From assembly GCA_044340465.1 (NCBI GenBank), contig JBIITO010000001.1, positions 39 through 64,038 of the forward strand: DNA of 64,000 bases, in the 5' to 3' direction. This DNA is from Crocinitomicaceae bacterium. Its GTDB lineage: Bacteria > Bacteroidota > Bacteroidia > Flavobacteriales_D > Crocinitomicaceae. The notes under the pieces were generated by a model. The model saw only the letters and a list, made by a program, of their open reading frames with translations. It was not told where the DNA came from and made no database searches. A program made the translations under genes and the position numbers. This document shows positions 15,808 through 33,550 of this stretch, piece after piece; position 1 is the stretch's first letter, and every line of letters starts with the position of its first letter.

Positions 15808-18800
15808 TTATTTATTCACGACCACACGCTCCGTTTTACTGTATTGACCAGTAGCTATTTTAATGAAGTAGACTCCATTAGCATACAAACTCATGTCAAG
15901 TTCCACTTTTTCGTTCGCGTTAATATTGAATTGCTCCTTTACTTCCTGACCAGTAACTGTCATGATAGTCACTTGCGCATTCTGAGAAGAAACAATATTT
16001 AAAGCGCGCTGTGTTGGATTCGGGAATACATTAACAAAGTTTTCATTGATCACATTTACACCCAATGGGGTATTACTGAACACCAATTCTACAGGCTGAC
16101 CGTTTAACAATGCAAGCGTATTAGAGAAATCCATCTCTTTGATTTTGTTAACACTGGCATCGAATTTAACTTTAGCGAATGTTTCATTTGTGTTGAAGAA
16201 TTCCATATCGAGCGCTGTGTAACGAAGTGTCCGGTCATCCTCATTGAAATGAGCAAACCCTTCTGTTGTAGTACCGACAGAAACCATATCATTGAATGAA
16301 AATTTGTTTTCATCGAATTGGAATGCCAAGTCGATTGCATTTACGGGCTCCGATGCTTCGAAAGTTACAGGAACTTCAAAACTATTACCGTTAAAAACAG
16401 CCTTTTCAAGATCAACAATCACTTTTCCGAAAGTAGACTTCAACACACCATCCGCAGTGTATGCGTCATAGTTACCATCTACATCACCCAGCATAATACC
16501 CTTATAAGTCTCCTCAATAAGGTTCGGACAATTGGTGGTGTCTGATGCGCGTGCCGAAAGAACAGATGGTACGACTGGCACTTTATATTTGGAGTAACCA
16601 ACCAAGTCATTATTAGGGAACGTTGCAGAAATCTGATAAGCTGGTTTGGTCAGACGCATGGAATCCACAAAGATCCAGTCTTTTGATGGCTGTCCATTTG
16701 AAACTCCTTCAGCATTGTAGTTCCATGCCTGACGGAATTCACCAATGTTCAGTGTTGCTCTTTGCTTCAACTGAGAAATATCACCTGCACTCACAACACC
16801 GTCAAGGTTTACATCAAGAGCAAGAATCTGATAGATTGAAGGCGTAAAGGTTAAAGCATCATTCAAAAGAAGAGTCTTGCCAAGCACTGCATCATTAGCA
16901 TTGATAATTAATTGCACTGTTGATGTGTTGCTTACTTCTCTTTCAATACTAAGACCCAATCCATTTTTGAGATTATGTTCAAACTGACCGGTTGTATTAG
17001 GAGTAATAGAAACAGATTGATTAACTAAAAGAGAAGTTGTGTCAGCTCCTTTCACTCGCGTGATCAAGTAGCTGTTCGGCAATGAGGCGTCATAGCGGAT
17101 AGGCTGGTGGTTCTTCCAATGTCTTAATTTACCTTTGTAAGAAAGATTCTTAAATGATCTCCACTTACCTGCTGAGGCTGCTCTAGACTGAACCCCAGTA
17201 ATGTAACTTTCCTGAAGGAATGATGTTGAGAACGCTGCCGAATCTACAGCTGCGAAACCACCTGTTTTCTGAAATTCAACACAAAATACTTTTCCTGTAC
17301 CATTGAATTCTGAATTTGCAGGAGCACTACCCTTAAAGTTGATCTGGACAGTAAATTTACCATTCGCCGGATCATCCACATGAGATTCCTCCAATAATCC
17401 ACTACTCACCAAGTCCGAAAACAGAGTTACATTTCCTGTTGGGGTTACTTTCGTTTTGTCGTAATTCAAAACAACATCATAGCCGATGACATTATCAACG
17501 GGTGAAGTTATTGAAGCTGATAATGTCATGCACAAAGTATTGATATCACACGCCTGATCAACCACATCTAACGCATAAGGCAGTGCGTTTGGATCTGCAA
17601 TGTTCAAGGTTACACCTGCAGTTGTTGTTGTAGCATTTTTGTTATCCGTAGCACGAACTGTAAACACTTTAGAACCTGGAGTAGATGTCCAACTAAAGGC
17701 ATATGGAGCGCTGGCGTCTGAACCTACAACTGTACCATTCACCAAAAATTCAACTAATGTAACTGTACCGTCTGCATCAGATGCATTTGCTGTAATGTTT
17801 ACTGCTGTAGGAGCAATAACAGACTCAGAACCTGTAGGAGCAGTAATAGATACAGTTGGAGGAGTATTCAATGCTACTGTGATGTTTGCAACCGACGAAG
17901 TCGTTGTCAAACCTTGATCATCCGTAGCGATTGCTTTGATCTGGTGCGCACCGGCAACTGCGGTCCAATTAATAGAATAAGGCGAAGTGTTATCTGTTCC
18001 TATTGAAACATTATCCACAAGGAACTCAACTGAAGCCACAGATCCCGGAGCTGCATCACTCGCAGTTGCTGTTATAGAAACATTATCTTGCTCAATGGCT
18101 GTCGTAGGAGCAGAAACACTTACAGAAGGTGCTGTATTAGTAACAGCCGTTACCGAAATAGCGGTAGAGGTAGTTGAAGCACACTCGTTATCTAATGCAA
18201 CAGCAGTGAAAGAACGAGCACCTGCCACTGCCGTGTAAGAAATAGAATAAGGTGCCGTGTTATCTACTCCTAAAGAAGTAGCACCATCAAAGAACTCCAC
18301 CTGTGTTATTGTTCCACCGTTGACGTCCCCAGCAGTGGCCGTGATTGTCTGAGATGAACCCGTATACCAGGTTGCACCGGATGTAGGTGAGGTAATAGAA
18401 ACAGTTGGAGGTGTATTCGGTACATACGTTAGTGATGCATTTGTTAGCTCAGATCCCGTTGGGTTTGAAGCAACATAGTTCTCTGCAATACCTGTTGCAA
18501 TATTCTGGATCTGCACATTCAATTCGAAACTTAACTGACCATTTGTGGTGAACTGAGCAACCAGTACCCTGTTCTCCGCTGTTGGACCCACAATGCCACC
18601 CAATGCGGCTATTGAACCTGCGTCAATTAATACTGAGCCTCCATTGGTTTGATCTAAAACATCAAGAGCAGATCCTAACCCAAGTCCGTTAGGTACTACA
18701 TAATAAGTTGATCCAACAGGAGGAGTGTTTGGAACGAAACCGTCTTTTGCACCAGAGCCTGTAATCGGATCACCAAAACATCCACCAGGATTATTTGCAA

Positions 18801-19254
18801 GTATAGATTGAGCATTCCCTATCGAACCATCTGAATCCAATGATTTTTGAACCCCGATGTAACCACCTCCTGCACCTCCGGTAGCAAACCAAGAGTCGAT
18901 CATGGCTGTGTTTTTGCGAATGTTGGAAGCACTAATTGTATTTGGATTAAGTGATACCCCATAAGTTGGATCATTGTAAAAGGCTGTGGTAGTATTTACT
19001 TTGAGTGCATGTGCAGAATTTCCGAACAGTAGGTTAAACTTATACCCAGCAGCCATGTCAACATACACACGATAGGTCACCGAATTAGTCGTAAGAGGTG
19101 TTACGGCTCCATTTGCAGATGCATTGGAGACGTCAGCAGCATTTGCTTGGTAGTATTTCTCTACAATGATCCCTTCCAAACCTTGCGCATGCGTAAGATT
19201 TCCGATCATTGCAAGCCCAAATCCAAGCAATAATTTTTTTGTGTTCGTTTTCAT
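15808..19254 (-). CDS. 1148-aa multidomain T9SS cargo: unassigned LEGIxVEKYY head domain, 3 Ig-like repeats, cohesin-like module, dockerin-like Ca loops, second cohesin-like module, type A CTD
   Basis: Signal peptide MKTNTKKLLLGFGLAMIGNLTHAQ. Head domain residues ~25-278. Ig repeats ~280-555. Cohesin-like 1: VIGYDVVLNYDKTKVTPTG...GKVFCVEFQKT. Dockerin-like: ALDVNLDGVVSAGDISQLKQRA and LGDVDGNYDAY. Cohesin-like 2: FEVPVTFEASEPVNAIDLAFQFDENKFSF...ETFAKVKFDAS. CTD: VNVFPNPTQRALNI....VTIMTVTGQEV......LYANGVYFIKI......RVVVNK. Confidence 0.85.
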   Translation of the reverse strand: MKTNTKKLLLGFGLAMIGNLTHAQGLEGIIVEKYYQANAADVSNASANGAVTPLTTNSVTYRVYVDMAAGYKFNLLFGNSAHALKVNTTTAFYNDPTYGVSLNPNTISASNIRKNTAMIDSWFATGGAGGGYIGVQKSLDSDGSIGNAQSILANNPGGCFGDPITGSGAKDGFVPNTPPVGSTYYVVPNGLGLGSALDVLDQTNGGSVLIDAGSIAALGGIVGPTAENRVLVAQFTTNGQLSFELNVQIQNIATGIAENYVASNPTGSELTNASLTYVPNTPPTVSITSPTSGATWYTGSSQTITATAGDVNGGTITQVEFFDGATSLGVDNTAPYSISYTAVAGARSFTAVALDNECASTTSTAISVTAVTNTAPSVSVSAPTTAIEQDNVSITATASDAAPGSVASVEFLVDNVSIGTDNTSPYSINWTAVAGAHQIKAIATDDQGLTTTSSVANITVALNTPPTVSITAPTGSESVIAPTAVNITANASDADGTVTLVEFLVNGTVVGSDASAPYAFSWTSTPGSKVFTVRATDNKNATTTTAGVTLNIADPNALPYALDVVDQACDINTLCMTLSASITSPVDNVIGYDVVLNYDKTKVTPTGNVTLFSDLVSSGLLEESHVDDPANGKFTVQINFKGSAPANSEFNGTGKVFCVEFQKTGGFAAVDSAAFSTSFLQESYITGVQSRAASAGKWRSFKNLSYKGKLRHWKNHQPIRYDASLPNSYLITRVKGADTTSLLVNQSVSITPNTTGQFEHNLKNGLGLSIEREVSNTSTVQLIINANDAVLGKTLLLNDALTFTPSIYQILALDVNLDGVVSAGDISQLKQRATLNIGEFRQAWNYNAEGVSNGQPSKDWIFVDSMRLTKPAYQISATFPNNDLVGYSKYKVPVVPSVLSARASDTTNCPNLIEETYKGIMLGDVDGNYDAYTADGVLKSTFGKVIVDLEKAVFNGNSFEVPVTFEASEPVNAIDLAFQFDENKFSFNDMVSVGTTTEGFAHFNEDDRTLRYTALDMEFFNTNETFAKVKFDASVNKIKEMDFSNTLALLNGQPVELVFSNTPLGVNVINENFVNVFPNPTQRALNIVSSQNAQVTIMTVTGQEVKEQFNINANEKVELDMSLYANGVYFIKIATGQYSKTERVVVNK
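16069..16428 (-). other. Cohesin-like module 2 of the 1148-aa protein
   Basis: GKVIVDLEKAVFNGNSFEVPVTFEASEPVNAIDLAFQFDENKFSFNDMVS...ETFAKVKFDASVNK...LNGQPVE. Confidence 0.45.
16750..16821 (-). other. Dockerin-like / EF-hand-type Ca-binding loop plus helix
   Basis: I verified the hand translation of 16750-16821 as ALDVNLDGVVSAGDISQLKQRA (compare the dockerin F-hand D.N.DG.....D...L). A weaker second loop, GDVDGNYDAY, lies at ~16459-16494. Confidence 0.45.
17185..17589 (-). other. Cohesin-like module 1 of the 1148-aa protein
   Basis: LCMTLSASITSPVDNVIGYDVVLNYDKTKVTPTGNV...FTVQINFKG...GTGKVFCVEFQKTG. Confidence 0.45.
17590..18417 (-). repeat. Three tandem ~92-aa Ig-like (Big-type) coding repeats
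   Basis: NTPPTVSITSPTSG...ITATAGDVNGGTITQVEFFDGATSLGVDNTAPYSISYTAVAGARSFTAVALDN; NTAPSVSVSAPT...ITATASDAAPGSVASVEFLVDNVSIGTDNTSPYSINWTAVAGAHQIKAIATDD; NTPPTVSITAPT...ITANASDADGTVTLVEFLVNGTVVGSDASAPYAFSWTSTPGSKVFTVRATDN. Confidence 0.8.
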
Positions 19255-19376: not shown

Positions 19377-21536
19377 TTAGTTACAAGTCGTATTAAAACC
19401 AGGAGCGAAGATTAAGAAGTCATTCACGTCTGTGTCACCGTCTTTGTCCAAGTCGGTTGGACAAGCTTTTACACCCAAGGTTTGACCAAGCACTTGAGAA
19501 TAAGACCAGTCGGACAACCAGTTCTGACCAGGCGTAGAAGAGAACGCACCTCTATAAGGAGCAGGCTCAAAGAAACCATCAGATGGAGGTGTTGGGCATC
19601 CCGTGATAGATAGTGGCGTGGTTGGTACCGGATCATTTTTGGTGATGATCGCATTGGTGTTACCATTTATGGCAAATGCTGAACTGAAACCTGTAAGCGA
19701 AGCTAGTACATCGTTTTTGTCTGTTGTAGTGAATTGTGTTGTTTCGGTAGTGTTAGCAGCTGTACCATTGGCAGCCAAAGTGCTACCATTAATTACCAAA
19801 GAGTTTGTGTTTCCTATCAAGGTATTACACTTAATTTTCAAACTTTCAGTATTTGCATCAGGATCTTGCTGAGCCACTTCAGTAGTCCAGTTTTGGTATG
19901 AATTAAAGGTACGTCCATTCGTAATTCCTTTTTCAATATTGATACCGTTTTTAAATCCAGCAATAATTGAATTGTAAAGCTCACCTTCAGCACCATCTTT
20001 AAAGTTGGCTCCTGACAAAGATCGGTTGTCCGCTGAACCAGTAGTTTTACTGTTACCCATTAAAGTAAAGTTGTACAATATAGGATGTGATCTTGGTGTA
20101 GCGTTATTTGAATTGTCATCAGAATCTGCTTCAATACCATTATCATTGTCAGCACTAACATTGCCAGTACCACCCTGGTCAGCCTTCATTCCGTAAAAGA
20201 ATTGCGCTTTACCTGTCCAACCTAAATCGTAATCGAACATGTCATCGTTACCAAAAAGTGTAGTACAATATTTAAGATTCACTGTTCCACCGAAAACCTC
20301 GATATTATCATCTGCACACGAAACGATTTCAATGTGTTCAATTTTAGTACCACGACCAACCGAAGCAAGTGTTAAACCATTGATCTCAGAACCTACTAAA
20401 AGGTTCGCTCCTGAGTGACGGATGGATACATACGTCATTACACCTGAATTGTCATTGTCATCGAAAGAACCTGTATTTGTATAGTATGCACCAACATAAC
20501 TTGCTACGGTTCCACTAGTTCCAGAAGTTGGAGCAGTTCCAGAAGCAGGTGCGACATAAGTCATAGAACTAAAATAACCCGTTGCACCTGGATTTGGATA
20601 ATCTCCTCCAAAAGTGATTACATCACCTGCAGTAACAGCAGCAGTAAGGTTAGCTGAAAGGGTAAGAGTTGTCGTAAAAGGACCAGTACCTGTTTGGGCA
20701 ATACTTAAAATTGTCGAACCTGCCGCAATACCTGTTCCAGACACCGTTTGACCCTGAACGACGTAAGCAAGTGGTGAAGCCGAGCTAGAAAGTGTCAATT
20801 TGTTCTGTCCGGAAGCATTTGAGCCAGACACCGCATTTCCTGCCGTTAAATCAAACGTGTAGGACCCTGAAGGCGAAGTTGAAAGCACTGTACCATCTGG
20901 TATGCTCGTAGCCACCCCAAACTGATCTTGAGGATAAGAAGATGCAAAACCTTCAATTACTCCTAAACCATCTGCAACCGCCATTTTACCACCTTGCCCA
21001 GGAACGAACGGACCGTTGGTCGCCAACTTAAGGTTGTTGGATGCTTTGCCTAATACAAGCACCCCTCCCCACATACCTTTATTTGTAACTCCGTATGAGC
21101 CGTTAAGTGGGTCTGCGGCAGCCGTAAATACAATTGGACATGATTCTGTACCGGGAGCCATAATTTTACCTCCTCGTTCGATGATCAATGCCGTAGCAGC
21201 AGCAAGCGAGGGCGCAACGGTACCTTTTATTACTGTTCCTGGCTCGATGGTTAGCGTTGCACCAGGTGCCACATATATTTTTTGATCTAATGTCCAGATT
21301 TTGTCACACGTTAAAGTGACATTTCCCGTTATTTCACCTCCATAAGCAGAGGCGGCAAGGTTGGTCCACGCACCATTCGCCTGCGCCAAACTTTGAATCG
21401 TTTGCGTGGTTCGAGAGGTAGTGGAAGGACAGCCACAAGCTGCACCCAGGTTTTGTTGTGCAATTGACGCACTTGTTCCCAACACTGACATTGAGGCCAG
21501 CGTAAGTAGACTTTTCATCGTCTTTTTTGTTTTCAT
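19377..21536 (-). CDS. 719-aa secreted protein (possible parallel beta-helix-like repeats) ending in a dockerin-like Ca-binding motif; no T9SS CTD
   Basis: Signal peptide MKTKKTMKSLLTLASMSVLGTSASIAQ. G/T/S/N-rich with repeated short strands (IEHIEIVSCADDNIEVFGGTVNLKYCTTLFGNDDMFDYD). I hand-verified the last 29 aa as ACPTDLDKDGDTDVNDFLIFAPGFNTTCN. Confidence 0.7.
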   Translation of the reverse strand: MKTKKTMKSLLTLASMSVLGTSASIAQQNLGAACGCPSTTSRTTQTIQSLAQANGAWTNLAASAYGGEITGNVTLTCDKIWTLDQKIYVAPGATLTIEPGTVIKGTVAPSLAAATALIIERGGKIMAPGTESCPIVFTAAADPLNGSYGVTNKGMWGGVLVLGKASNNLKLATNGPFVPGQGGKMAVADGLGVIEGFASSYPQDQFGVATSIPDGTVLSTSPSGSYTFDLTAGNAVSGSNASGQNKLTLSSSASPLAYVVQGQTVSGTGIAAGSTILSIAQTGTGPFTTTLTLSANLTAAVTAGDVITFGGDYPNPGATGYFSSMTYVAPASGTAPTSGTSGTVASYVGAYYTNTGSFDDNDNSGVMTYVSIRHSGANLLVGSEINGLTLASVGRGTKIEHIEIVSCADDNIEVFGGTVNLKYCTTLFGNDDMFDYDLGWTGKAQFFYGMKADQGGTGNVSADNDNGIEADSDDNSNNATPRSHPILYNFTLMGNSKTTGSADNRSLSGANFKDGAEGELYNSIIAGFKNGINIEKGITNGRTFNSYQNWTTEVAQQDPDANTESLKIKCNTLIGNTNSLVINGSTLAANGTAANTTETTQFTTTDKNDVLASLTGFSSAFAINGNTNAIITKNDPVPTTPLSITGCPTPPSDGFFEPAPYRGAFSSTPGQNWLSDWSYSQVLGQTLGVKACPTDLDKDGDTDVNDFLIFAPGFNTTCN
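19380..19466 (-). other. C-terminal dockerin-like / EF-hand-type loop bracketed by two Cys
   Basis: C-PT-DLDKDGDTDVNDFLIF-APGFNTT-C-N. A D.D.DG.....D..L.F loop plus helix. Confidence 0.4.
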
Positions 21537-21686
21537 AAATAAATTATTTCTCGTTTACGAAGCAAAATTATGAGGCGGGTATGCCTTGAATATTAGCCCG
21601 AAATTATTTCTCTGCTAATCTTTTGCTCAAAAAGCGTACTAACGATATTAAGAATGCGTTAACTAGTTAACTATATTTAAAGAAGA

Positions 21687-22355
21687 CTAAAGACTTCTTA
21701 CCATTCCCATCTGGATACCACTGGAATATAAGCGACAAGGCAGCTCGCCTTTAGTCAATGGATTTATTTGAAATTGTCCGCAGAATTGCGTTCGAAAATT
21801 CCAGTTCTGATTCATACGAACACTTAGACCTATAGCCAACTGACCAAACACGGCAAAGGAAAAAGATCCCGGATAAACGGTAGTTCTTTGTAATGCATAG
21901 GCCTCATTGGTTCGATAAACAGCACGACTCTTTAATAAGACCGAAGAAACAAGCGCAGGTTGAAGAACCAACTGAAGTTTCTCATTTACTCTTTTGTAAA
22001 AATTACACCCTAGAGGAAACTGAAGGTAATGAAAGTTTAAGCGGTAGGATCGAAATCCATCCATGGTTTGGTCCTTATGTTGATACCCGTAATTACTATA
22101 TGCTATCCCCACGAAGAAAGATTTTCTCTCGGAAATTCCAAATTCATAGTTTATAAATGCACTACAACTAAGTTTTACCTCATGCGTACTGTCATGTTGC
22201 CGCTTGATCCAAGACAAATCTTCATTTTTTAATCCAAAAACACGATAGTTTACTGAGGGTGAAAAACCAAATGCCACAGCCTGCAATTTGTCTCGCTGAG
22301 CTAAACAACAGAGGGAAAGTGTAATAAATATTAAAAATAAAGTACTCGTTTTCAT
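21687..22355 (-). CDS. Outer-membrane beta-barrel protein (PorT/OmpW-size class)
   Basis: Signal peptide MKTSTLFLIFITLSLCCLAQ. 222 aa with alternating strands rich in aromatic residues and Gly. Confidence 0.5.
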   Translation of the reverse strand: MKTSTLFLIFITLSLCCLAQRDKLQAVAFGFSPSVNYRVFGLKNEDLSWIKRQHDSTHEVKLSCSAFINYEFGISERKSFFVGIAYSNYGYQHKDQTMDGFRSYRLNFHYLQFPLGCNFYKRVNEKLQLVLQPALVSSVLLKSRAVYRTNEAYALQRTTVYPGSFSFAVFGQLAIGLSVRMNQNWNFRTQFCGQFQINPLTKGELPCRLYSSGIQMGMVRSL

Positions 22356-22449: not shown

Positions 22450-23160
22450 TTAATCTTTTACGCAACGTACACTCATGCCATATTGGACATGAGCTAATTG
22501 CCTGAAAATGGTTTTTTTCTTCGCATCAAAATAACGATACCATGCTTCTGAACCATTGAGAGTTGAAGTCCAAAAGAAAGCCATATTCGCATTAACAGAG
22601 GCTATTCCATTGAATGTTTTGCACCCTGCCGGTAAAATTTTCATCTGATACTTATCGTTCCCGAAAGGCACACTATTCGTAGGCCAACCTTCCGAATAAT
22701 TGGGCAATAAGTCTTCCGCTTCATCAGTACCGCGCCATGCAAATGCGCCTACTTCATCATTCGACATGCCGATAAACCGTTCCAAGTCTTTCCAGTCTTC
22801 ATCTGTGGCAACATGCCAACCTGACGGTGCTAATTTCTTATCGCCTTGAATGGCTGACTGATTATATAAAAATCCATAAATCGAGTCGTTCAAAAAAGTG
22901 AAGCATGGGTCTGTACAGTTCGCCCACAAAGTATCTGAAGAAAAAATCGGAATATACTTGATTTCTGACCCATCGTTAAATTTGGTTACTTTCAGATTTT
23001 CTGCCATCCACCACTTTCCTCCAAGCAGAACTGTTTTGTAGACATTACCCTCAATATCCTTGACAGTTCCTGTTTGAATAGGCGCTTCTTGTGTTTCCTT
23101 TTTGCATGATGATACGGCTAAAGCGAATACCGTAATCATCCAAAAAAACTTAGTGTTCAT
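22450..23160 (-). CDS. FISUMP-domain (Fibrobacter succinogenes major paralogous domain) lipoprotein
   Basis: Start reset to MNTKFFWMITVFALAVSSC (lipobox-like Cys). GTVKDIEGNVYKTVLLGGKWWMAENLKVTKFNDGSEI is the characteristic D.(D/E)GN.Y.TV.IG.Q.WMAENL pattern. C-terminal WTST....AWYR......R.....G.SVRCVKD. Confidence 0.8.
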   Translation of the reverse strand: MNTKFFWMITVFALAVSSCKKETQEAPIQTGTVKDIEGNVYKTVLLGGKWWMAENLKVTKFNDGSEIKYIPIFSSDTLWANCTDPCFTFLNDSIYGFLYNQSAIQGDKKLAPSGWHVATDEDWKDLERFIGMSNDEVGAFAWRGTDEAEDLLPNYSEGWPTNSVPFGNDKYQMKILPAGCKTFNGIASVNANMAFFWTSTLNGSEAWYRYFDAKKKTIFRQLAHVQYGMSVRCVKD

Positions 23161-23161
23161 A

Positions 23162-24505
23162 TTAGTTGGATTTAACAAGGATGAGTGTTTTCACTTTTTC
23201 ACCAATTCGCACATTTAAATGATATAAACCATTTTCCAAATGAGAAACATCGAGGGATTCGCCAACGATTTTGTCCGAACCAGGAAGACTTTTTTGCAAT
23301 ACCTTCAACCCGTAGGCCGAGAATAACTCATAATCAATAGTCTCGTCTGTTATTCCCGAATATATATTCATTTTGAAATCTCCGTTGCTTGGGTTTGGAT
23401 AAACATCCAACTCAAATGATTCTCCCAAAAGCACAGGACACACTTGCGCGATATCTCTACCGTTGCAAAGCCCGGGATAGCAGCACAAGCCTTGCACATT
23501 GAAATTGGCAGTTGGATCAAAATTACATGCTATGGAATCCATACAACCGAGAATCAATGGCGTCAAACAGGTATTAGGTTGTAAACAAGCAACCCTCGGG
23601 TCGTATTCAAGGTAAGAGGGGTCATTGCAACCGCATTCCAGTGGATAGATCAAAAATGGATGGTATGTTTCCCCAGCTAATAACACACTATCTGAACCGA
23701 CAAAAACAAAGTTTTCCAGAGCACCATTTACCCATCCCTCTATTTCTAAATTCAGATGAAATGATAACTCCCCTTTGGTGGTGACCTGAGCAATGAGTAT
23801 CTGATTGCTATCAGGTATTACTCCAACCGTACCAGAGTTTCTTAATTCAAATTGGCGACTATTGAATTCCGTTCCGGGAACGACTGAGCCAAAAATGCTA
23901 CTATCAACTCCGGTTACAAAATCGGTAACTCCGTTAGCAAACCAGTTCGAGGGTTTTTTAACCAATGTATCCATACCATCTGCCACAGTTAATGGTCGCC
24001 CACAAGAAGGATCAATATTGGTAAGCAAACCAGAAGGTTTCATGGCGCTTCCGCCATCATTATTTATTCCCCCAATAAAAGAACCATCCAAATCAGAATC
24101 TTTTGGCAAGCCGAAATACGTTTTACTTCCCTGTGTTTTAGTTGTCTGACCAATTGTGAGCCAGCTATCCAAAGCAACGGTATTCTCTGAATAACGCGCT
24201 TTTACAAAATCTTTAGCAAAGGTTTGGCCATCAGACGAGTGATTATAAAAAGGTTCCGTACTCTGAATAATAAAGGGGTGGTTTTTATCGCCGTATAACT
24301 TTTTAAGAACATAACCGGGAGCTAGATCCACATAGATTCGATAGGTTGTGCTTCCAACCGGCAGTACTCCTCCAATGGTATTTGTAGCATCGTTAGCATC
24401 ACTCACATAATATTTTTCGACGAAGACTCTCTCCAGCTGAGCAAATCCCGATAAACCTAACAAAAGGAATATCAATAAAAGGCAATATTCAGTACTCTTT
24501 TTCAT
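23162..24505 (-). CDS. Secreted protein: unassigned LE..FVEKYY head domain, Cys-rich GC.D..ACNFDP-type modules, T9SS type A CTD
   Basis: Start reset to MKKSTEYCLLLIFLLLGLSGFAQ, 4 nt after the receptor stop. Head LERVFVEKYYVSDANDA...STTYRIYVDLAPGY...ILIAQVTTKGELSFHLNLEI. Cys-rich ECGCNDPSYLEYDP...GCMDSIACNFDPTANF. CTD VYPNPSNGDFKMNI...LENGLYHLNVRIGEKVKTLILVK. Confidence 0.8.
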   Translation of the reverse strand: MKKSTEYCLLLIFLLLGLSGFAQLERVFVEKYYVSDANDATNTIGGVLPVGSTTYRIYVDLAPGYVLKKLYGDKNHPFIIQSTEPFYNHSSDGQTFAKDFVKARYSENTVALDSWLTIGQTTKTQGSKTYFGLPKDSDLDGSFIGGINNDGGSAMKPSGLLTNIDPSCGRPLTVADGMDTLVKKPSNWFANGVTDFVTGVDSSIFGSVVPGTEFNSRQFELRNSGTVGVIPDSNQILIAQVTTKGELSFHLNLEIEGWVNGALENFVFVGSDSVLLAGETYHPFLIYPLECGCNDPSYLEYDPRVACLQPNTCLTPLILGCMDSIACNFDPTANFNVQGLCCYPGLCNGRDIAQVCPVLLGESFELDVYPNPSNGDFKMNIYSGITDETIDYELFSAYGLKVLQKSLPGSDKIVGESLDVSHLENGLYHLNVRIGEKVKTLILVKSN

Positions 24506-24509
24506 TTCG

Positions 24510-27500
24510 CTATAATTTGTAGGCAAGGCCAAGTGTAAATACTGTTCCGTATCTGAAACGGTCAAAATCAGCGTACCCATCGTTCAATTTATAGGCTCTT
24601 AGAACAGGTGCATTAAGAATGTCTCTGACCGTTAAGCTAGAAGAAAAATGTTTTCCTAAGGTTTTGGTGACCTTAAAGTCAAGAGAATGTCTCGGCATTT
24701 CATAAATATCTGGCCTTCCTTTTAAAATCCCTGTGATCACAAGCCTCGGTCCTTGCACGTTGTAGCTCACTGTTGCTGTCAATCCTAGGGAATCCGATTT
24801 ATAGGATAAAATACCGTTAATTATGTATGGCGCCTGACCAAACATTGTTCGTTGAACGGTATCAATTGGTATATATTCGATTTGATTTCCTGTCAAGATG
24901 ATAAAATCCTTTCGGACATATTGAGAATACGACTTGACAAAAGTTAAATTGGTTCTAAATTCCAAAAATTTACCAATTTGCTTTTTTCCTTCCAGTTCGA
25001 TTCCTGCGACATAAGAATTCTCATTATTATCCCAGGTGATTCCAGAACTACCAAAACCCATTTCAATATGGTTTGTAAAGTCTTTATAAAATAAACTGAA
25101 TGAAACATTATCGTTATTCCTAAAATAGGACTCAAATCTAAAGTCGAAATTATTGACCTCGGTAACCTTAAGGTTCGGATTTCCATAAATTAAGGTTCTG
25201 AACTCGTTATCATAAACGGCAGATGCACTCATCTCACGTATATTTGGACGAGCTACGGTCTGACTGAAATTGAATCGTAGATTCGTAGTTACTTTCTCTT
25301 CATTTCCTAACTTGAGTATCAGACTTCCCGATGGTAATAAATCAACTTGATCAATAATTCCCGGATTAATCAATGGATATCCAGGAATATTTACCCTTCT
25401 TCCGTCATTGATACCATAACCCAAAAGATCATATATGTATATATCAGACAACAACCCTGCTTTCTCGACGCGCAAACCACCATTGAATCGGAGCCTTTTG
25501 AAGACCTCGTAATCGACTAATCCATATCCGGATAGAATTGTACTATTTCCTATCGTTCGATTCCAATCCCAAATTTGATCCTGATAATAGAAATCAATTT
25601 GACCATTGGAAATCATGAACTTATCAGGAATTAAGTACATGTCAATATCATCGTTTTGCAACCCTTCGAATGCAACTTTATTCCCCTGAGCAAGAAAATA
25701 TTCATCCTGTTTAGAATTTCTATGCATCGCTTGATAAGCTGATCCAAACTTAAGTTTTCTTACAAGCTTCTTTTCCGGTTTAATCAAAGGAACCTCAATG
25801 GATAATCGGGTATCGAGAAGGTTCTCACTAAGGTACCTGTAGTAGCGACGAATACCATCGCCTGCATTTGGTGAAAACTGATACCCCTCAATAGAGTCAC
25901 CTATTCTAGTTGCGTCGTACTGTGTTAATTTAAAATCGGGGGCCACGCTGCTTCCCCGAGTGTAGGATACATTAGATTCGATTTTAATGTTGCTTTTTGG
26001 AAGAAGATGCTGTGATGATAATTGATAAATAAGTTGTTTGCGTTGTTCGTAGAAAATGTTTTTTCGAACACGATATTCTTGAAAATCATTCGTGTCCCAT
26101 TGGGTGGAAAAATTGGCCACGTCATTCGTTCCAATATAATTTGGCATAAACAAAACGGATACCTTATTATAGTCGTTTATCTTATACGCCAAATTGCTCA
26201 GCATGCTCCATGAATTTGTTTCACGACTGATGCGCGCATCATCAATAAATTCAATTGGATAATTAACTTCCTCTGCACCTATTCTTTGTGACACGCCGTT
26301 CGCATCGTAACGGATGGTATTTCCGTAACGAAATCCAAAAATATAGCCCAGGGGCCTGCCGAACAATTTAACCTGATCACCGATACTGAAATTTTGAGTG
26401 AAATTCAATGGTGCTTTGCGATACTTTACATTCCAATTATTGGCAAAGCCATTATTAAAATCAGTGCCTTCAGGGTTAATTAGAGCATATGCTTTTTGTG
26501 CATATTGAGAGTTATACTTTTTGAGCGCCGTTTGATAGGCAGACTGATCATTCATTTGAGAAGGGTTCAACAACCCTAACTGTATCAAACCTAATCTTAA
26601 ATAAGTTTCTTCCTCTGGACTTCCATCTGACCATCCCCTGACACCCAATTGGTCAAAATAACTTCCTAAGCCAAGCGCCACCATTTCCTGATAATTCGTT
26701 GGCTGAAGGATGGGAGCAGAAATTGTCGACTGAGAATCATCTCGTGAACGCAGACCACTATCAAAACCTAACCAATCCGTAGAACTTCGGTCTGAGGTAA
26801 CAAAATCACGAAATGTACTTTGGGCATTGTAGCCAATTTGTGACTCTACATTTACCATTAACTTATCTGGGTAATCTTTGGTTTCTACAGAAAGGTAGGC
26901 TCCTGTCCAATCACCCGGCAGATCCGGACTCGCCGTTTTCGTAATCACTATGTTGTCCACAAGGCTTGTAGGAATGATGTCAAGTTTGATATTGTTGGTT
27001 AAGGGGTCTAGAGTTGGTATTCTTGAACCGTTGAGGGTGGTTTTTACATATCTATCACCTATGCCCCTTACTGTTATTAATCCACCACTTGTAGAAACGC
27101 CCGAAACACGTGCGACAGCCGCTGTAACATTGGCATCACCGGTTTTTTTCATCGTTTCGGAGGAAATATAATCCAAGGTAGTAGCCGAATTGATTTTCAT
27201 TTTTTCCATGTAATAATCACTCGCCCTTACCTGTTTGGCAACCACTTTAACCTCCTTAATATCCCTAAGTTTATATGCTGTCATGGAGAAGTCTTTCACC
27301 AAAACCTGTTCATCTCTTAGTTTAATTCGCTGCGTGATGGTATCCATTCCCACAAAGGTTACCGAAAGCGTTTTTTCGTCGGATGTTTTGATCTGAAACG
27401 TGTAGTTACCATCCAAATCCGTTTTGGTGCCTACAGATGGCTCTTCTTTCAATGAAAGTCGTGCACCAATAATGGCTTCTCCATTTTCATCAGTCACCTT

Positions 27501-27572
27501 TCCAGTCAACGTTCCCTGTGAATAAGCTAGGTGAATAGAAAAAATGACAAAAAGGCACAAAAACGTTTTCAT
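24510..27572 (-). CDS. TonB-dependent outer-membrane receptor with N-terminal carboxypeptidase-regulatory-like domain
   Basis: Start reset to the ATG giving MKTFLCLFVIFSIHLAYSQ. GTLTGKVTDENGEAIIGARLSL...TDLDGNYTF (CarbopepD_reg-like). Plug-like VARVSGVSTSGGLITVRGIGDRYVKTTLNGSRIP. ~800-aa barrel-length remainder. Confidence 0.9.
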   Translation of the reverse strand: MKTFLCLFVIFSIHLAYSQGTLTGKVTDENGEAIIGARLSLKEEPSVGTKTDLDGNYTFQIKTSDEKTLSVTFVGMDTITQRIKLRDEQVLVKDFSMTAYKLRDIKEVKVVAKQVRASDYYMEKMKINSATTLDYISSETMKKTGDANVTAAVARVSGVSTSGGLITVRGIGDRYVKTTLNGSRIPTLDPLTNNIKLDIIPTSLVDNIVITKTASPDLPGDWTGAYLSVETKDYPDKLMVNVESQIGYNAQSTFRDFVTSDRSSTDWLGFDSGLRSRDDSQSTISAPILQPTNYQEMVALGLGSYFDQLGVRGWSDGSPEEETYLRLGLIQLGLLNPSQMNDQSAYQTALKKYNSQYAQKAYALINPEGTDFNNGFANNWNVKYRKAPLNFTQNFSIGDQVKLFGRPLGYIFGFRYGNTIRYDANGVSQRIGAEEVNYPIEFIDDARISRETNSWSMLSNLAYKINDYNKVSVLFMPNYIGTNDVANFSTQWDTNDFQEYRVRKNIFYEQRKQLIYQLSSQHLLPKSNIKIESNVSYTRGSSVAPDFKLTQYDATRIGDSIEGYQFSPNAGDGIRRYYRYLSENLLDTRLSIEVPLIKPEKKLVRKLKFGSAYQAMHRNSKQDEYFLAQGNKVAFEGLQNDDIDMYLIPDKFMISNGQIDFYYQDQIWDWNRTIGNSTILSGYGLVDYEVFKRLRFNGGLRVEKAGLLSDIYIYDLLGYGINDGRRVNIPGYPLINPGIIDQVDLLPSGSLILKLGNEEKVTTNLRFNFSQTVARPNIREMSASAVYDNEFRTLIYGNPNLKVTEVNNFDFRFESYFRNNDNVSFSLFYKDFTNHIEMGFGSSGITWDNNENSYVAGIELEGKKQIGKFLEFRTNLTFVKSYSQYVRKDFIILTGNQIEYIPIDTVQRTMFGQAPYIINGILSYKSDSLGLTATVSYNVQGPRLVITGILKGRPDIYEMPRHSLDFKVTKTLGKHFSSSLTVRDILNAPVLRAYKLNDGYADFDRFRYGTVFTLGLAYKL

Positions 27573-27592
27573 CGGAATCAAATTTTCTGTGC

Positions 27593-28690
27593 TTAGTTTT
27601 TAATCAGTTGGCGAACCCATTGTTGATCACCAACGGTCAATTTCAAAAGGTAAACGCCCTTTTCCATCTCATTAAGGTCAACCGATGAAACCAGTTTTCC
27701 ATTGGTTGAACTAACTTTTTGTTCTTGCAAGACCTGTCCGTTAAGATTCATTAACATCCAATTATCTGAAGGTTTCGTTACCTGATAATTCGATGCGAAT
27801 ATGGTGGCTTTGTCTAGTGTTGGGTTGGGATACAGAATTACCTCTATTGATTGATTTGAGAAGTCGTTCAGACCAACATTGTCCTGAGGAGATGAATTAT
27901 AAATCAACGTTTTTTCAAGTCGTTCGTTACCAACGGGATTCGAAGCAACATATATTTCACTTTCTCCAGGAATTGGTGTGCCAAGTTGAATGTTTAATTG
28001 AAAACTGAAATCTCCATCTGTCGTAAACTGTCCAAGTAGTACATTATTACTTGATGTCACACCTTGCACCCCACCCAATGCAGCAATCGCAGCCCCTTTG
28101 GTTAGGAATGAACCTCCTACCGTTTGGTCAAAAATATTCAGTTCATTTGTAAAACCAAGCGTATTCAATGCAGTTGGAGAACCAGGCAGCAGACCGTCTT
28201 GCGAACCAGGACCAGTAATAGGAAGACCTGCACTTGCATCGCTATTAGCAAGAATACCTTGATTATTTCCGATAGACCCATCCGAATCTTCTGTTTTGGG
28301 CACCCCCATCAAACCATTTGCAACTCCTCCGATTGTGAAATATGAATCGATCAACTGGGTGTTTTTTTTGGTATTATTCAAACTAGTGCCGCTGTAAAAA
28401 GGCACACCAAAATTGGGATCATTGTAAAATGAAGTGGTGGTTTCAACACGGAAATCGTGGTTGGCATCACCATACATCTGAATAACTCTATAACCAGGCA
28501 AAAGATTTGCATAAATCCTATAGGTTACTGAACCAACATGAAGAGGATACGGCGCATCATTATTTTTTGCATCTATTGAATCTTCTTTGTTAGAAACATA
28601 ATATTTCTCGACGAAAATCCCTTCTAAGCCATTTTGAGCGTTAAGTCCAAATGCCGAAAATATTCCAAGGGTAAGTAATGTTTTTTTCAT
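27593..28690 (-). CDS. Secreted protein: unassigned LEGIFVEKYY head domain plus T9SS type A CTD
   Basis: Signal peptide MKKTLLTLGIFSAFGLNAQ. Head NGLEGIFVEKYYVSNKED...SVTYRIYANLLPGY...NVLLGQFTTDGDFSFQLNIQL...IYVASNP. CTD ILYPNPTLDKATIF...MEKGVYLLKLTVGDQQWVRQLIKN. Confidence 0.8.
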   Translation of the reverse strand: MKKTLLTLGIFSAFGLNAQNGLEGIFVEKYYVSNKEDSIDAKNNDAPYPLHVGSVTYRIYANLLPGYRVIQMYGDANHDFRVETTTSFYNDPNFGVPFYSGTSLNNTKKNTQLIDSYFTIGGVANGLMGVPKTEDSDGSIGNNQGILANSDASAGLPITGPGSQDGLLPGSPTALNTLGFTNELNIFDQTVGGSFLTKGAAIAALGGVQGVTSSNNVLLGQFTTDGDFSFQLNIQLGTPIPGESEIYVASNPVGNERLEKTLIYNSSPQDNVGLNDFSNQSIEVILYPNPTLDKATIFASNYQVTKPSDNWMLMNLNGQVLQEQKVSSTNGKLVSSVDLNEMEKGVYLLKLTVGDQQWVRQLIKN

Positions 28691-28692
28691 TT

Positions 28693-29526
28693 TTATTTTG
28701 ATTTATTTCTTCTAGATTTTTGATTAATTAAAACGAGTGATTCTATCGTAAACTCATTTTCCAAAGGGTTTCTTGCTACAAAGCGTTGCGCCTTTCCATC
28801 AGGAGTACCTATTTGAATATTCAATTCATACTCAAGCCTTCCGTCGGTGGTAAGTTGGGCAATCAAAACCTTATTATGATGTAAAGAATCAGCGCCAAGA
28901 CTTCCTTTACCCATACAGGCCCATGCACCATTGTTAACATAAAATTCACCACCCTGTTTTGCTCCGAAAACTTGTATGGCAGAATCGATTCCAAAAAAAG
29001 TATGAAGAGGCATGCCTACAGTGTACTTCAAACCGTCTTTTTCGCTAGGCAGAACAGAAACCTCATTTGTGCGATTGATAAGGAAGCCCTCTTCAAATTC
29101 AATAAATCCCGAGGTATCATCATCCTCTTTTGGTATTCCAAGACAAAGCTCGCCGGCCGTACCGACAGAAAGCCATGAATCGAGCATAACCGTATTTTTA
29201 CCCAAACTCCTTCTCGGAATTACACTAGCCACTGCGCCTCCTTTATCGGTATTATTAAAAAAATAAGTGTTAGTTCTGAAAAAAAGAGGATGTTCCTTTG
29301 ATCCATAAGCCGCTTGAAAACTATAGCCTGGTAAAAGATCAACGTATATTCGATATGTTGTGGCGTTCCTCTTAAGTTCTCCAGCATAGGAGTTAGCCTT
29401 TAAATCAGCTTTTCCCGAAACATAATATTTTTCAACAATGATGCCTTCTAGCCCCTGCTTTGTGCTTTGACAAAAGACGTTTCCAATAAAGAAGAATAGA
29501 ATAAATAATGTGTAAGCTAATCTCAT
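28693..29526 (-). CDS. Secreted (possibly lipidated) protein consisting only of the unassigned LEGIIVEKYY domain
   Basis: Start reset to the ATG giving MRLAYTLFILFFFIGNVFCQ. QGLEGIIVEKYYVSGKAD...ATTYRIYVDLLPGY...KVLIAQLTTDGRLEYELNIQI...RFVARNP. No CTD; ends in the basic tail KSRRNKSK. Confidence 0.75.
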   Translation of the reverse strand: MRLAYTLFILFFFIGNVFCQSTKQGLEGIIVEKYYVSGKADLKANSYAGELKRNATTYRIYVDLLPGYSFQAAYGSKEHPLFFRTNTYFFNNTDKGGAVASVIPRRSLGKNTVMLDSWLSVGTAGELCLGIPKEDDDTSGFIEFEEGFLINRTNEVSVLPSEKDGLKYTVGMPLHTFFGIDSAIQVFGAKQGGEFYVNNGAWACMGKGSLGADSLHHNKVLIAQLTTDGRLEYELNIQIGTPDGKAQRFVARNPLENEFTIESLVLINQKSRRNKSK

Positions 29527-29676
29527 AGTAAGCAACGCAAACTGCGCGATGCAAGATTAGACAGAGCAGATAACTTTCAAATTAAATGTAAATTATTGTT
29601 AAGTTATGAAAGCAGCCTTTGGGTTATCAGAATTTTAAGCCTGTGTTTTGGAAATGTAAAAAGCAAACAAGATTTA

Positions 29677-31071: not shown

Positions 31072-31194
31072 TCGAGTTGCAGGTTGCGAATGTTAAGAAA
31101 ATAAATCCCTCATGTTTTCCCGATTTTATAATTGCGTTATGCTTTTGTAAACCGAAGTCAGGGTTCAGAGAAGTATCGTAACCTTGAGAAAAAA

Positions 31195-31839
31195 ATGGCA
31201 AATTCCGTATTACAACATCTCTTTCCGAACGGAAATTTCATCCTTGGTCACTTACATCATTCTGCTGACAGAGTTCACTCCTTGGGGCTCATCCTTTACA
31301 ACGTGGTTCATGAAAAAAGTACCGACAAACGAAAAGAATTGTTGGATCATTCAGCACGTTTACACAAAGAAACCCTTGCTGAATCCAGGCTACTTTTCGA
31401 AACGCTTTCCAAAAACCTCATCACTCCTTTTGACCGTGAAGACATCTTCGCTATAGGTAGTGGACTCAAAAGTATTTCATCCAAAACAGATTCCCTGATC
31501 CGTTTCATTGAGCAAAATAAGTGTAATTCAGAAAATACAGGCCTGAAGGAATTGACTTTGAGTTTCACTCAAGCTTCGGCAGCCATGACGCAAGTCGTTC
31601 AAGGACTCGAACATGTTCAACAGTATAAAAAAACATATGGGTCTATTCTTGATATGAAGGAGCAAATCGTCCATATCAATGAGATCTGTGAAAGATCTAT
31701 GATCCACTGTTTCGATGAGATCGAATCCATCAAGTTGATACTTATCAATATTGACCTCTACATTTACTTTGATACGCTATCTGAAAAACTTAAGGAACTT
31801 GCTCAGGTCGCGGAGGGATTCATTGTCAAATATGCCTGA
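31195..31839 (+). CDS. DUF47 (PhoU-like, YkaA-type) family protein, divergent paralog
   Basis: Start reset from TTG 31132 to ATG 31195 (MANSVLQHLFP...), parallel to the paralog's MASGILKFFLP. Shared core LITPFDREDIFAIG versus FITPFDREDIHSLA and C-terminus (F/S)IVKYA. Confidence 0.75.
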   Translation: MANSVLQHLFPNGNFILGHLHHSADRVHSLGLILYNVVHEKSTDKRKELLDHSARLHKETLAESRLLFETLSKNLITPFDREDIFAIGSGLKSISSKTDSLIRFIEQNKCNSENTGLKELTLSFTQASAAMTQVVQGLEHVQQYKKTYGSILDMKEQIVHINEICERSMIHCFDEIESIKLILINIDLYIYFDTLSEKLKELAQVAEGFIVKYA

Positions 31840-31930
31840 GTTAATCGCGAGATTCATAATTATTTAATATCTGCTTAATATTTAGGTAACATTTAAGTAG
31901 GTCATGAAACCTACATTTAGAGAAAAAAGT

Positions 31931-32242
31931 ATGCGCCAATTTTATTTGTTTCTTTCGTTGCTGCTGATCACGTCTTGTTCGGTGACACGCAACATTTCCA
32001 CTGAAGGGTTTTCCATCGAAGGGAACCTTGTTTCTTATAAAGGCGCTGCTATGGCGGAACTTGTTGGTGTAGAATTTGCGCTCGACGACGGAAAATTCGT
32101 GCGGGAATTAACCTTCAAATTGAAAGAAGGTTCGGACAACAGCGTGATCAATAACCTGATTGTTTTTCTACACCAAAAACACCCCGACTATGAGATCGAG
32201 GTGGAAATTGATGTTGAACATTACGAAAATTTAAAGCCCTAA
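31931..32242 (+). CDS. Small hypothetical lipoprotein
   Basis: MRQFYLFLSLLLITSC lipobox-like signal. An alternative ATG at 31904 cannot be excluded. Confidence 0.45.
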   Translation: MRQFYLFLSLLLITSCSVTRNISTEGFSIEGNLVSYKGAAMAELVGVEFALDDGKFVRELTFKLKEGSDNSVINNLIVFLHQKHPDYEIEVEIDVEHYENLKP

Positions 32243-32243
32243 C

Positions 32244-33461
32244 CTAGAAATTTATTTGAGCTTGTAACCTGAGTAATCTTCCCGATTGAAAATTGTCTTG
32301 GTTGGCGTAATCCTCAAATCGTCTGTGGGAAATGGTATACATTGCCAACAATTCAAAGGTTTTGTGGGGCTGCCATTCAAATCCGATTTCGTATTCGTTA
32401 ACCTTATAGCTTCTGGCGTCTAATTCGTGCTTCTTGCCTCCTTCATAATATTGACCTCGAGCGAAAGGAATAAGAACCTGCTTTCCGAGCTTCAGCATGT
32501 ACGAAAGAGTTATATATCCTCCTTGAAGATTTTGCACTTCAATCGAGTCTGACATTTTGTTGAATTCAGGTCCTTTACCCACATTATACTCGGCTTGAAT
32601 ACCGAAAGGTTTCGGATATAAAACGAAGGTTCCTGCAACACGCTCATCCAAATATGTTGACTCTTCATTTTTCTTTACGCCGTTTGAAGTACTAAGAAGA
32701 GTAAATTGCCCACTATACGCCTGAATTCCAGGTTCTATTATTTGATTTTTGATTTTAATTGGACAACTCAATCGCGACACAAAATGAAGATTATTATTTC
32801 TTTCGGTTTGGTTCGCAGTTTGACCATTGTACGCTCCAAAGGCAAAAACACCATAATCACCGGATCCTTTAAGACCATCGCGAACCAATGAAGAAAGTAA
32901 TGTTCGAGTGCCTTTGGGTGCCCAATAGAAAAATGCACCTAAATCACGTTCATTTGTAACCGCACTATTCAATGCATCATTACGGTCCAGTGGAATACGG
33001 TTTTGGCTGGACTGCATGTTTTCAAAACCATAGGGCACCTTACTCTGTCCGACTCTGATTCTAAACTCATTGTTTTTATCTAATCCAAGGTCAAAATAAG
33101 CATCCCTAATTTGGGCAACATGACCGGTAGTTCCTGCCGATGATGCCAAATCCGGTTGAATGTAAAAGTATACCCTCGGAGAAATTTGTCCGAAAAAGAT
33201 AATTCTGGCACGTCGTATGAAAAATGCACCGTTGTCGCCCCAGGACCGGTCACACTGTTCACATTTTAAATCAGGATTAGTTTCAAAGAGGCGATTATAC
33301 CTTGTTTGAACATAACCACGGATCTGTACATTTTCGTACCACGCTTTCGTTTTGCCTTGATCTTGTAATGAAACAACTGGTTTTTCAACTATACTGTCTT
33401 TTTGTGCGTTGATCAAGCCTGTAACAAGCACCAACGTTAATGTTAGGATTTTGCTTTTCAT
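32244..33461 (-). CDS. Outer-membrane porin, phosphate-selective porin O/P-like
   Basis: Signal peptide MKSKILTLTLVLVTGLINAQ. ~385-aa beta-rich protein ending LRLQAQINF. IRGYVQTRYN...FFIRRARIIFFGQISPRVYFYIQPD resembles the Porin_O_P pattern. Lies in a phosphate gene context. Confidence 0.55.
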   Translation of the reverse strand: MKSKILTLTLVLVTGLINAQKDSIVEKPVVSLQDQGKTKAWYENVQIRGYVQTRYNRLFETNPDLKCEQCDRSWGDNGAFFIRRARIIFFGQISPRVYFYIQPDLASSAGTTGHVAQIRDAYFDLGLDKNNEFRIRVGQSKVPYGFENMQSSQNRIPLDRNDALNSAVTNERDLGAFFYWAPKGTRTLLSSLVRDGLKGSGDYGVFAFGAYNGQTANQTERNNNLHFVSRLSCPIKIKNQIIEPGIQAYSGQFTLLSTSNGVKKNEESTYLDERVAGTFVLYPKPFGIQAEYNVGKGPEFNKMSDSIEVQNLQGGYITLSYMLKLGKQVLIPFARGQYYEGGKKHELDARSYKVNEYEIGFEWQPHKTFELLAMYTISHRRFEDYANQDNFQSGRLLRLQAQINF

Positions 33462-33484
33462 TTGAGTATTCGTTTTTCGATGTG

Positions 33485-33492: not shown

Positions 33493-33550
33493 TATCCTTA
33501 ATACCTGGGCAATATACTGTTAATGCTTATTTAAGATTTTAATAATTTTC

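Follow-up and report, generated by a model that had tools for sequence, protein, structure and literature searches.

A conserved TonB-dependent transporter operon with type IX secretion cargo paralogues in freshwater Flavobacteriales and its possible control by phosphate starvation

Within a 64,000-nt stretch of DNA from a Crocinitomicaceae bacterium (GenBank assembly GCA_044340465.1, contig JBIITO010000001.1, positions 39 to 64,038 of the forward strand; the whole stretch is called the window here), five genes of the minus strand make up a conserved operon, which is centred on a TonB-dependent transporter (TBDT) and includes paralogous type IX secretion system (T9SS) cargo proteins carrying type-A sorting domains. 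Three of the five proteins share a domain that we call the head domain. We propose that this is an outer-membrane nutrient-acquisition operon of freshwater Flavobacteriales, most likely belonging to the PhoBR phosphate-starvation regulon, and we give this proposal an even chance of being right. Control by phosphate starvation is suggested by the architecture of the promoter, by the adjacency of phoBR in some lineages and by the neighbouring genes.

The five-gene operon and its proteins

The minus-strand open reading frames (ORFs) within 22450-29535 are five in number, co-oriented and nearly gapless. With each gene start reset to the first in-frame ATG after the extended TTG/ATG start of its ORF, the first gene, headA (28693-29526, 277 aa), encodes a signal peptide and a head domain only, without a C-terminal sorting domain (CTD) and without a lipobox; headB (27593-28690, 365 aa) encodes a head domain and a T9SS type-A CTD; the TBDT (24510-27572, 1020 aa) consists of a CarboxypepD_reg-like N-terminal extension, a plug and a 22-strand-type barrel; headC (23162-24505, 447 aa) has a head domain, a linker with 10-12 cysteines and a T9SS type-A CTD; and the last gene (22450-23160, 236 aa) encodes a lipoprotein of the FISUMP (Fib_succ_major) family (Pfam, 7e-38), predicted to be surface-exposed, whose lipobox ..VSSC is followed by KKETQE. 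An earlier note, made from the letters of this DNA, had given intergenic gaps of 2, 20, 4 and 1 nt together with these reset starts, and the ORF listing reproduced them exactly. The three paralogues of an unassigned domain which it described share 36-37% identity over an alignment of ~250 aa in which 64 columns are invariant, its TBDT of ~1020 aa with a CarbopepD_reg-like N-terminus was borne out by CarbopepD_reg_2 (3e-13) and Plug (PF07715, 7e-10), and the type A T9SS sorting domains that it assigned to two paralogues were recovered in headB (1e-10) and headC (3e-8) with Por_Secre_tail/TIGR04183. The CTD bit scores all exceed their cut-offs (42 and 46.9 for headB, 34.2 and 26.6 for headC, and 52 for a fourth, 1148-aa paralogue). 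We also agree with the note that a SusD-like gene is absent, zero matches to SusD families of Pfam and NCBIfam having been obtained among the operon proteins or their neighbours.

A head-domain profile search of GTDB species genomes gave at least 484 places, and the best 80 loci, mostly from metagenome-assembled genomes of freshwater Flavobacteriales and Crocinitomicaceae, were analysed for synteny by tblastn together with ORF-level blastp. Coding headA, headB, the TBDT, headC and FISUMP as A, B, T, C and F, respectively, we counted among these 80 loci 46 with the order ABTCF, 3 with ATCF, 2 with AABTCF and 1 with ABTCCF; ABTCF or a minor variant was thus found in 52/52 loci long enough to show the order, while the remaining loci were prefixes ended by contig ends and a conflicting order was seen in none. 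Median gaps across loci were 7/20/12/2 nt. Orthologues measured ~270-295 aa for the head protein without CTD, ~361-372 aa for the first head+CTD protein (in some loci 718-869 aa and with additional Ig-like domains), 1014-1027 aa for the TBDT, ~440-455 aa for headC and ~236-246 aa for the FISUMP lipoprotein, and the order stays while protein identity between loci falls to 42-47%. The earlier note had named beforehand a lack of enrichment of head-domain genes beside TBDTs in other genomes as a result that would speak against it; we found the order kept in ~50 species-level genomes. An independent JGI contig showed the same order followed by OMP_b-brl_2 barrel, Beta_helix_4 and Big_7+CTD genes, which are the counterparts of the window genes at 21687-22355, 19377-21536 and 15808-19254. 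Furthermore, 177 head domains compared by neighbour-joining fell into three clades, each tracking gene position, which implies that the triplication is old and that every copy has been retained. Clusters of the transporter at 90% identity hold up to 198 metagenomic sequences. The divergent neighbours of headA were heterogeneous across loci, and a single conserved divergent partner was not found among them.

Sequence and fold searches show the transporter to be a true TBDT that carries the Bacteroidota-type extension at its N-terminus, and not one of the SusC type. The Plug model matched 18/18 orthologues scanned and the barrel model PF00593 4/18 at 1e-31, besides many precomputed matches. Orthologues of 47-89% identity keep the plug and many residues of the barrel unchanged, and ahead of the plug, just after the N-terminal extension and at the place expected of a TonB box, stands a TonB-box-like motif, IKEVKVVAK (conserved as IxEVxVxAK). 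The best NCBIfam model was TIGR01782, at 151 bits and thus below its cut-off of 310, none of the NCBIfam SusC/RagA models matched, and when a TBDT profile was run against the PDB, its matches to SusC/RagA were confined to the N-terminal 170 residues, in the region of the extension and the plug. When an AlphaFold2 model of modest quality (pLDDT 62.6) was searched with Foldseek, classical TBDTs ranked first, with PhuR, OprC, FoxA and HasR at E ~1e-17. In the same model we noticed a three-helix insertion, unusual for a TBDT, at residues ~293-365 (pLDDT ~80-87), between the plug and the main barrel strands; plug residues 101-289 were modelled below pLDDT 50.

Neither Pfam nor NCBIfam has a match to the head domain, none came from the PDB by sequence or by profile, and its named homologues are all called 'hypothetical protein'. 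AlphaFold2, run on a 35-sequence alignment, returned a confident, mostly beta model (pLDDT 89.6, pTM 0.86) for which no Foldseek match in the PDB or in BFVD went below E 0.001, and on this model the domain is apparently a new fold. Likenesses of the model to PA14/Flo, cohesin and YcnI were set aside as too weak for use. The family comprises at least 1348 clusters at 50% identity. Invariant residues of the domain include E27, E32, Y35, D41, R59, H79, D116, D136, D164, Q224, N236 and E258, which may together make up a site. Among its long members scanned, a C-terminal Por_Secre_tail was present in 7/7, an N-terminal head in 5/7 and an Ig-like stalk in 4/7; the stalk domains between head and CTD were PKD_6, Big_2, Big_7 and Ig_7, and TSP3/EF-hand or MAM segments were also present. 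In terms of domain order, this layout is that of a surface-displayed binding tip.

All orthologues of the three clades have a signal peptide ending in A/S-Q, after which GLEGIIVEKYY follows at once; this end we take to mark signal-peptidase-I cleavage before Gln, the Bacteroidota 'Q-rule'. Neither a CTD nor a lipobox was found in any headA orthologue, and headA is therefore not T9SS cargo. The earlier idea that the head paralogues are delivered by the T9SS thus stands for headB and headC, which have the CTD, but fails for headA, where a signal-peptidase-I signal without CTD and lipobox was seen in every orthologue; headA, lacking both, may be periplasmic or be exported by another route. headC has at residues ~290-365 the 10-12-Cys linker, present in 52/52 headC orthologues and not in headA or headB, with the pattern CGC.D..YLE...C.....C.TP...GC.D..ACN[FY]D...N....LCCYPG.C..RDI..VCPSL.

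The FISUMP domain was identified by PF09603 (131 bits, cut-off 33.9) and by TIGR02145 (88.7 bits, cut-off 41.65). In its orthologues the lipobox Cys is followed by K-K-E-E-E, which we take to resemble the Bacteroidota lipoprotein surface-export signal. A surface lipoprotein is thus probably encoded in the locus. It had been suggested earlier that T9SS-delivered proteins fill the capture role instead of a lipoprotein partner; SusD is indeed absent, but with a probable surface lipoprotein present the T9SS proteins need not replace such a partner. No account of FISUMP functioning with TBDTs was found in the literature.

Promoter repeats and neighbouring genes

Regions upstream of headA were aligned from 65 loci and a consensus was derived from 38 non-redundant orthologous promoters. 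In the window, a Bacteroidota-type -7 box, TAATCTTGC (29551-29559, minus strand), lies 33 nt upstream of the headA ATG, its TAnnnTTGC being conserved in orthologous loci, and a Pho-box-like operator (29580-29610, minus strand) is made of three TAAT/TAAC-core units, cATAAC, aATAAT and tTTAAT, with 11-bp phasing. The operator consensus is tTTAAT..ATAAt..TTAAT, with half-sites starting at -48/-37/-26 from the -7 box; the -33 TTTG element is absent from the aligned headA promoters, and the TTAAT/ATAAY repeats stand there instead. With a position weight matrix (PWM) of the operator, a single site of the window scored higher than shuffled sequence (24.0, the shuffles reaching at most 20.3), and the full 31-nt matrix gave no second significant site there. 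In the Pho box of PhoB/SphR, units of 8 bp follow one another in tandem, separated by linkers of 3 bp, and in Synechocystis the consensus is CTTAACCT (PMC1906773). The operon repeats are similar to it in that they are direct repeats with an 11-bp period and a TTAA[C/T] core which adjoin the downstream promoter element on its upstream side and replace the upstream one; they differ in that their binding by PhoB is a prediction. The literature searched defines no Bacteroidota Pho box, and the repeats provide a candidate Pho box for Flavobacteriales of which no earlier description was found there. Inverted operator-like copies (PWM 16-21) were also noticed ~150-280 nt upstream of headA in L030, L032, L038, L004, L080 and other loci, which suggests multiple regulator-binding sites in some lineages. 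An Rfam gathering scan of the whole window found no riboswitch or other RNA, and a scan for sigma-70 promoters and terminators was uninformative, the terminators being at chance level and the promoter model wrong for Bacteroidota.

Lower-ranked matrix matches near the window porin described below led to a simpler test of phased half-sites, for which 80 metagenomic loci around porin orthologues were used. The sense strand was scored for the exact pattern [TA]TAA[CT]N6[TA]TAA[CT] in the 150 nt before each gene, and each gene class was compared with other genes by Fisher test. The pattern preceded 54/76 headA genes (71%, p 2e-26), 17/52 Porin_O_P genes (33%, p 5e-6), 7/30 PhoU_div genes (23%, p 0.009), 4/11 Beta_helix_4 genes (36%, p 0.008) and 4/10 other TBDT-like genes (40%, p 0.005), as against 13/192 (7%) of all other genes, the reference class; shuffled upstream regions carry it at ~4-5%. 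Some porin promoters match the -48/-37/-26 or the -37/-26/-15 register.

An OmpR-family two-component system was found beside the cluster and divergent from it in 4/80 loci (L009, L017, L078 and L064, of which L064 yielded only the winged-helix ORF). The best NCBIfam models of this system are PhoB for the response regulator (RR) and PhoR/PnpS for the histidine kinase (HK); the kinase has two transmembrane helices and lacks a periplasmic loop, and JGI labels the 361-aa kinase family 'phosphate regulon sensor histidine kinase PhoR'. In L166 and L167, phoB-phoR faces away from the genes of a TBDT paralogue (27-31% identical to the window TBDT) and Beta_helix_4, and in L167 these two run on into headA, a head+Big_7+CTD gene and a TBDT orthologue, the promoter carrying ATTAACGGACAGTTAACATTTGCTTAAC, that is, three TTAAC at 11 bp. 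All six phoBR-like systems (L009 5799-7623, L017 1038-2820, L078 6941-7615, L064 7385-7678, L166 9220-10990 and L167 9304-11086), with an RR of 231-250 aa and a kinase of 329-362 aa, are divergent from a CarboxypepD_reg-type TBDT plus Beta_helix_4.

Genes related to phosphate are also present 3-7 kb upstream of headA in the window, namely a Porin_O_P phosphate porin (32244-33461, minus strand), PhoU_div (33830-34477), from which the porin is divergent, and a PHO4/PiT transporter (34502-36124). A paralogous CarboxypepD_reg-type TBDT lies directly beside the porin in 9/80 porin loci. In orthologous metagenome loci we noticed a strongly conserved TTGTTAACGTAAACATAAC 175-310 nt upstream of the porin, near the PhoU_div promoter, and its window counterpart, GTTAACGTAAAGATAAC, is at ~33750-33766 within the porin/PhoU_div intergenic region (33462-33829). 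An upstream porin in L080 was considered as counterpart of the window porin and rejected, the similarity being weak. On the plus strand, 31132-31839 encodes a 235-aa protein with a DUF47-like motif, TPFDREDI, and no significant Pfam match, which has a homologue in 30/80 porin loci; after it comes the gene of a 112-aa predicted lipoprotein (31904-32242) with TTAATATCTGCTTAAT at -40 from its start, and the second- and third-best operator PWM matches in the window are at this gene pair.

Downstream of the operon the minus strand encodes a small outer-membrane beta-barrel protein (OMP_b-brl_2, 21687-22355), often found after FISUMP in orthologous loci, and a secreted 719-aa beta-helix protein (19377-21536), a conserved operon follower whose orthologues belong to Pfam Beta_helix_4 and whose homologues are the partners of phoBR-adjacent TBDTs. 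A phased half-site pair, TTAACGCATTCTTAAT (21647-21662, minus strand), lies 126 nt upstream of the beta-helix gene. The fourth head-domain paralogue (15808-19254, minus strand, 1148 aa; E 3.5e-70 to the head domain) is located 3 kb downstream of the operon and comprises a head domain, three Big_7 domains, a dockerin-like segment and a T9SS CTD. Beta-barrel, Beta_helix_4 and head+Big_7+CTD genes are frequent trailing companions of the operon, and the beta-helix and head-Ig-CTD pair (15808-19254 and 19377-21536) is a separate module. The coupling of the head domain to a TBDT that the earlier note had assumed is thus upheld by the conserved operon but does not extend to giant multi-head T9SS proteins, which stand beside Beta_helix_4 with no TBDT within 10 kb. 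Such an arrangement was observed in L084 (1-17821, on a 5.6-Mb contig), where a Beta_helix_4 protein precedes one of 2481 aa with three tandem head domains, after which come two more head+CTD proteins, and no TBDT was found within 10 kb of the Beta_helix_4/multi-head genes. A different head context was seen on a marine TARA contig (L082 7245-10859), in which a 2182-aa protein with two heads, MAM and CTD adjoins a protein with TSP3 repeats that matches choice-of-anchor-I (E 8e-112).

Farther along the window, a calcineurin-like phosphoesterase gene (Metallophos/Metallophos_2, 9056-9922, plus strand) overlaps a family-1 glycosyltransferase gene (9919-10965, plus strand). We take this pair to resemble the PlcP/Agt pair of phosphorus-sparing lipid remodelling, and no phased repeat was found upstream of it. 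The minus-strand region 10970-14963 encodes a PKD-repeat protein of 993 aa that bears a T9SS signal of type B (CHU_C), and then a 336-aa protein without a Pfam match, whose position suggests a PorP/SprF-like partner.

Proposed uptake route and its alternatives

On our proposal, phosphate limitation would activate a PhoB-type regulator, which would bind the three repeats and drive a single transcript from ~29545 to 22450. headB and headC would be exported by the T9SS to capture the ligand at or near the surface, anchored or released, and the FISUMP lipoprotein, flipped to the surface, would serve as a second binding partner of the TBDT. The TBDT would then import the captured compound with TonB energy, while headA, having no export signal beyond Sec, would stay in the periplasm and receive the ligand. 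This ligand would most likely be a phosphorus-containing organic or polymeric compound. We also considered that the head domain might be a new fold-level ligand-capture family acting on both sides of the outer membrane, as a T9SS-dependent 'xenophore relay' that replaces SusD-type lids in these abundant freshwater Flavobacteriales, a view which we put forward tentatively and regard as doubtful.

Several observations weigh against an acquisition operon under PhoBR control. The assignment of the regulator draws on motif architecture, on synteny in a minority of lineages and on annotation names. Neither the window nor most loci have phoBR beside the operon, and the RR (210 against 296 bits) and HK (230 against 334 bits) are below the NCBIfam PhoB/PhoR equivalog cut-offs, with other OmpR-family models scoring them nearly as high. 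The porin promoters as a set are without the operon's fixed register to the -7 box, the window's own porin is without the strict sense-strand pattern, and OprP of Flavobacterium johnsoniae is not induced by low inorganic phosphate (Pi) (PMC8115612). The conserved cluster of eight genes has no phosphatase, phosphodiesterase or inner-membrane transporter, the Metallophos gene lying 12 kb from the operon and outside this cluster. The TBDT model is poor, its fold matches being generic and uninformative on substrate; the periplasmic location of headA is deduced solely from the absent CTD or lipobox; and head-domain proteins are also found without a nearby TBDT.

The operon could instead take up a nutrient without phosphorus (for instance a glycan from algae, a peptide, a chelated metal or a vitamin) in a TonB-dependent manner, with the T9SS head proteins and FISUMP as binders and the AT-rich repeats serving another OmpR-family or an unrelated regulator, and this we hold to be unlikely. 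The closest barrel model, TIGR01782, points that way, as it represents a Xanthomonas/Caulobacter-type subfamily whose characterised members import carbohydrates, but the score stays under the cut-off. Similarly, FISUMP is a lectin-like binding fold that turns up in diversity-generating retroelement surveys, and Foldseek, given the head model, ranks Ca-dependent PA14 lectins first, though weakly; these lectin matches, however, are not significant (E 0.08, TM ~0.2). If the want of a phosphatase in the cluster and the sub-threshold RR and HK scores speak for such a nutrient, the conserved cluster is also without a glycoside hydrolase, lyase or peptidase, and the repeat pattern is common to the phosphate porin, PhoU-PiT and phoBR-adjacent promoters.

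It is quite improbable, in our estimate, that the genes form a surface/adhesion assembly or secretion module in which a TBDT-like barrel anchors or exports the head proteins, notably the CTD-less headA. According to PMC6434023, Oar of Myxococcus, built of CarboxypepD_reg, Plug and barrel, is needed for protein secretion and exports PopC, and the window TBDT shares its architecture; headA has no recognisable export signal, and very large, adhesin-like T9SS proteins that also contain Ig, TSP3/EF-hand and MAM domains bear head domains. The plug and the TonB-box-like motif are nevertheless strongly conserved, as in importers, the TBDT relatives beside phoBR and phosphate porins fit nutrient uptake, the Oar-type Pfam barrel model did not match, and no such module is known from Bacteroidota. 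Chance adjacency, or a mere neighbourhood of T9SS cargo genes unconnected to the transporter, might be suspected in a window generally rich in T9SS cargo genes, but it is effectively refuted by synteny: the five-gene order and short gaps are present in every informative locus of the 80, at identities down to 42-47%, and the three position-specific paralogue clades are kept.

We return to nutrient acquisition under phosphate-starvation control as our proposal. Phosphorus limits production in most lakes, and much of the organic matter that blooms release there is consumed by Flavobacteriales. If the proposal is true, a large family of 'hypothetical' proteins would gain a regulon and a testable operator, the TBDT-plus-accessory principle of Bacteroidota would reach from lipoproteins to T9SS cargo, and a tractable way would open into the uncharacterised low-Pi clusters of F. 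johnsoniae.

Comparison with known systems

No description of this gene cluster was found in the literature. By analogy, its closest precedent would be the low-phosphate clusters PUSIII and PUSIV of F. johnsoniae (Lidbury et al. 2021, PMC8115612). PUSIII, which is induced by low Pi, contains a TBDT with Plug and CarbopepD_reg_2, the highly induced exoprotein FI with a polygalacturonase-like fold, and two co-induced 'T9SS-secretion domain' proteins without a Pfam domain; also encoded there are a pair of ECF sigma and FecR, a peptidase of family S41 and one PPK/PLD-like gene (PMC8115612). PUSIV contains phoBR, with a PhoR of HisKA and HATPase_c alone, the OprP porin, a TBDT and FII, a protein related to FI; FI and FII are abundant beta-helix-like exoproteins described as lipoproteins (PMC8115612). 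The window locus is similar to the two clusters taken together in having a non-SusC TBDT of the same Pfam signature, T9SS proteins, a beta-helix protein and an OprP/Porin_O_P neighbourhood, and PUSIV places phoBR beside a TBDT and a beta-helix protein as in L017, L166 and L167, with like kinase domains, an arrangement that all six phoBR-like systems named above have in common with it. It differs in gene order and content, FISUMP is not reported from PUSIII/PUSIV, and the window beta-helix protein has a type-I signal whereas FI and FII are lipoproteins; the comparison was made by description and Pfam signature only.

With SusCD, PusCD, RagAB and the utilisomes the operon shares the Bacteroidota N-terminal extension and the grouping of a transporter with predicted surface binding proteins. 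On the other hand, it has no SusD-like protein and no SusC model match, its barrel is nearest to classical TBDTs, two of its accessory proteins are T9SS cargo, and one paralogue is without both lipid anchor and CTD. Hemophore-TBDT systems (HasA-HasR and HmuY-type) are similar in that a dedicated TBDT receives a scarce ligand from a secreted or surface binder, and since HmuY of F. columnare carries Por_Secre_tail and is reported to be T9SS-secreted, it is a precedent for T9SS-delivered capture proteins. The head domain, however, has no HmuY_like match or other match in Pfam, PDB or Foldseek, the operon has three paralogues and FISUMP, and its regulation looks Pho-type rather than iron/heme-type. 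The earlier idea of T9SS-delivered capture is thus consistent with the operon, but the general concept is partly precedented by F. columnare HmuY and by PUSIII. Combined together, these comparisons describe a PUS-like, TBDT-centred acquisition cluster which is built on an undescribed domain family.

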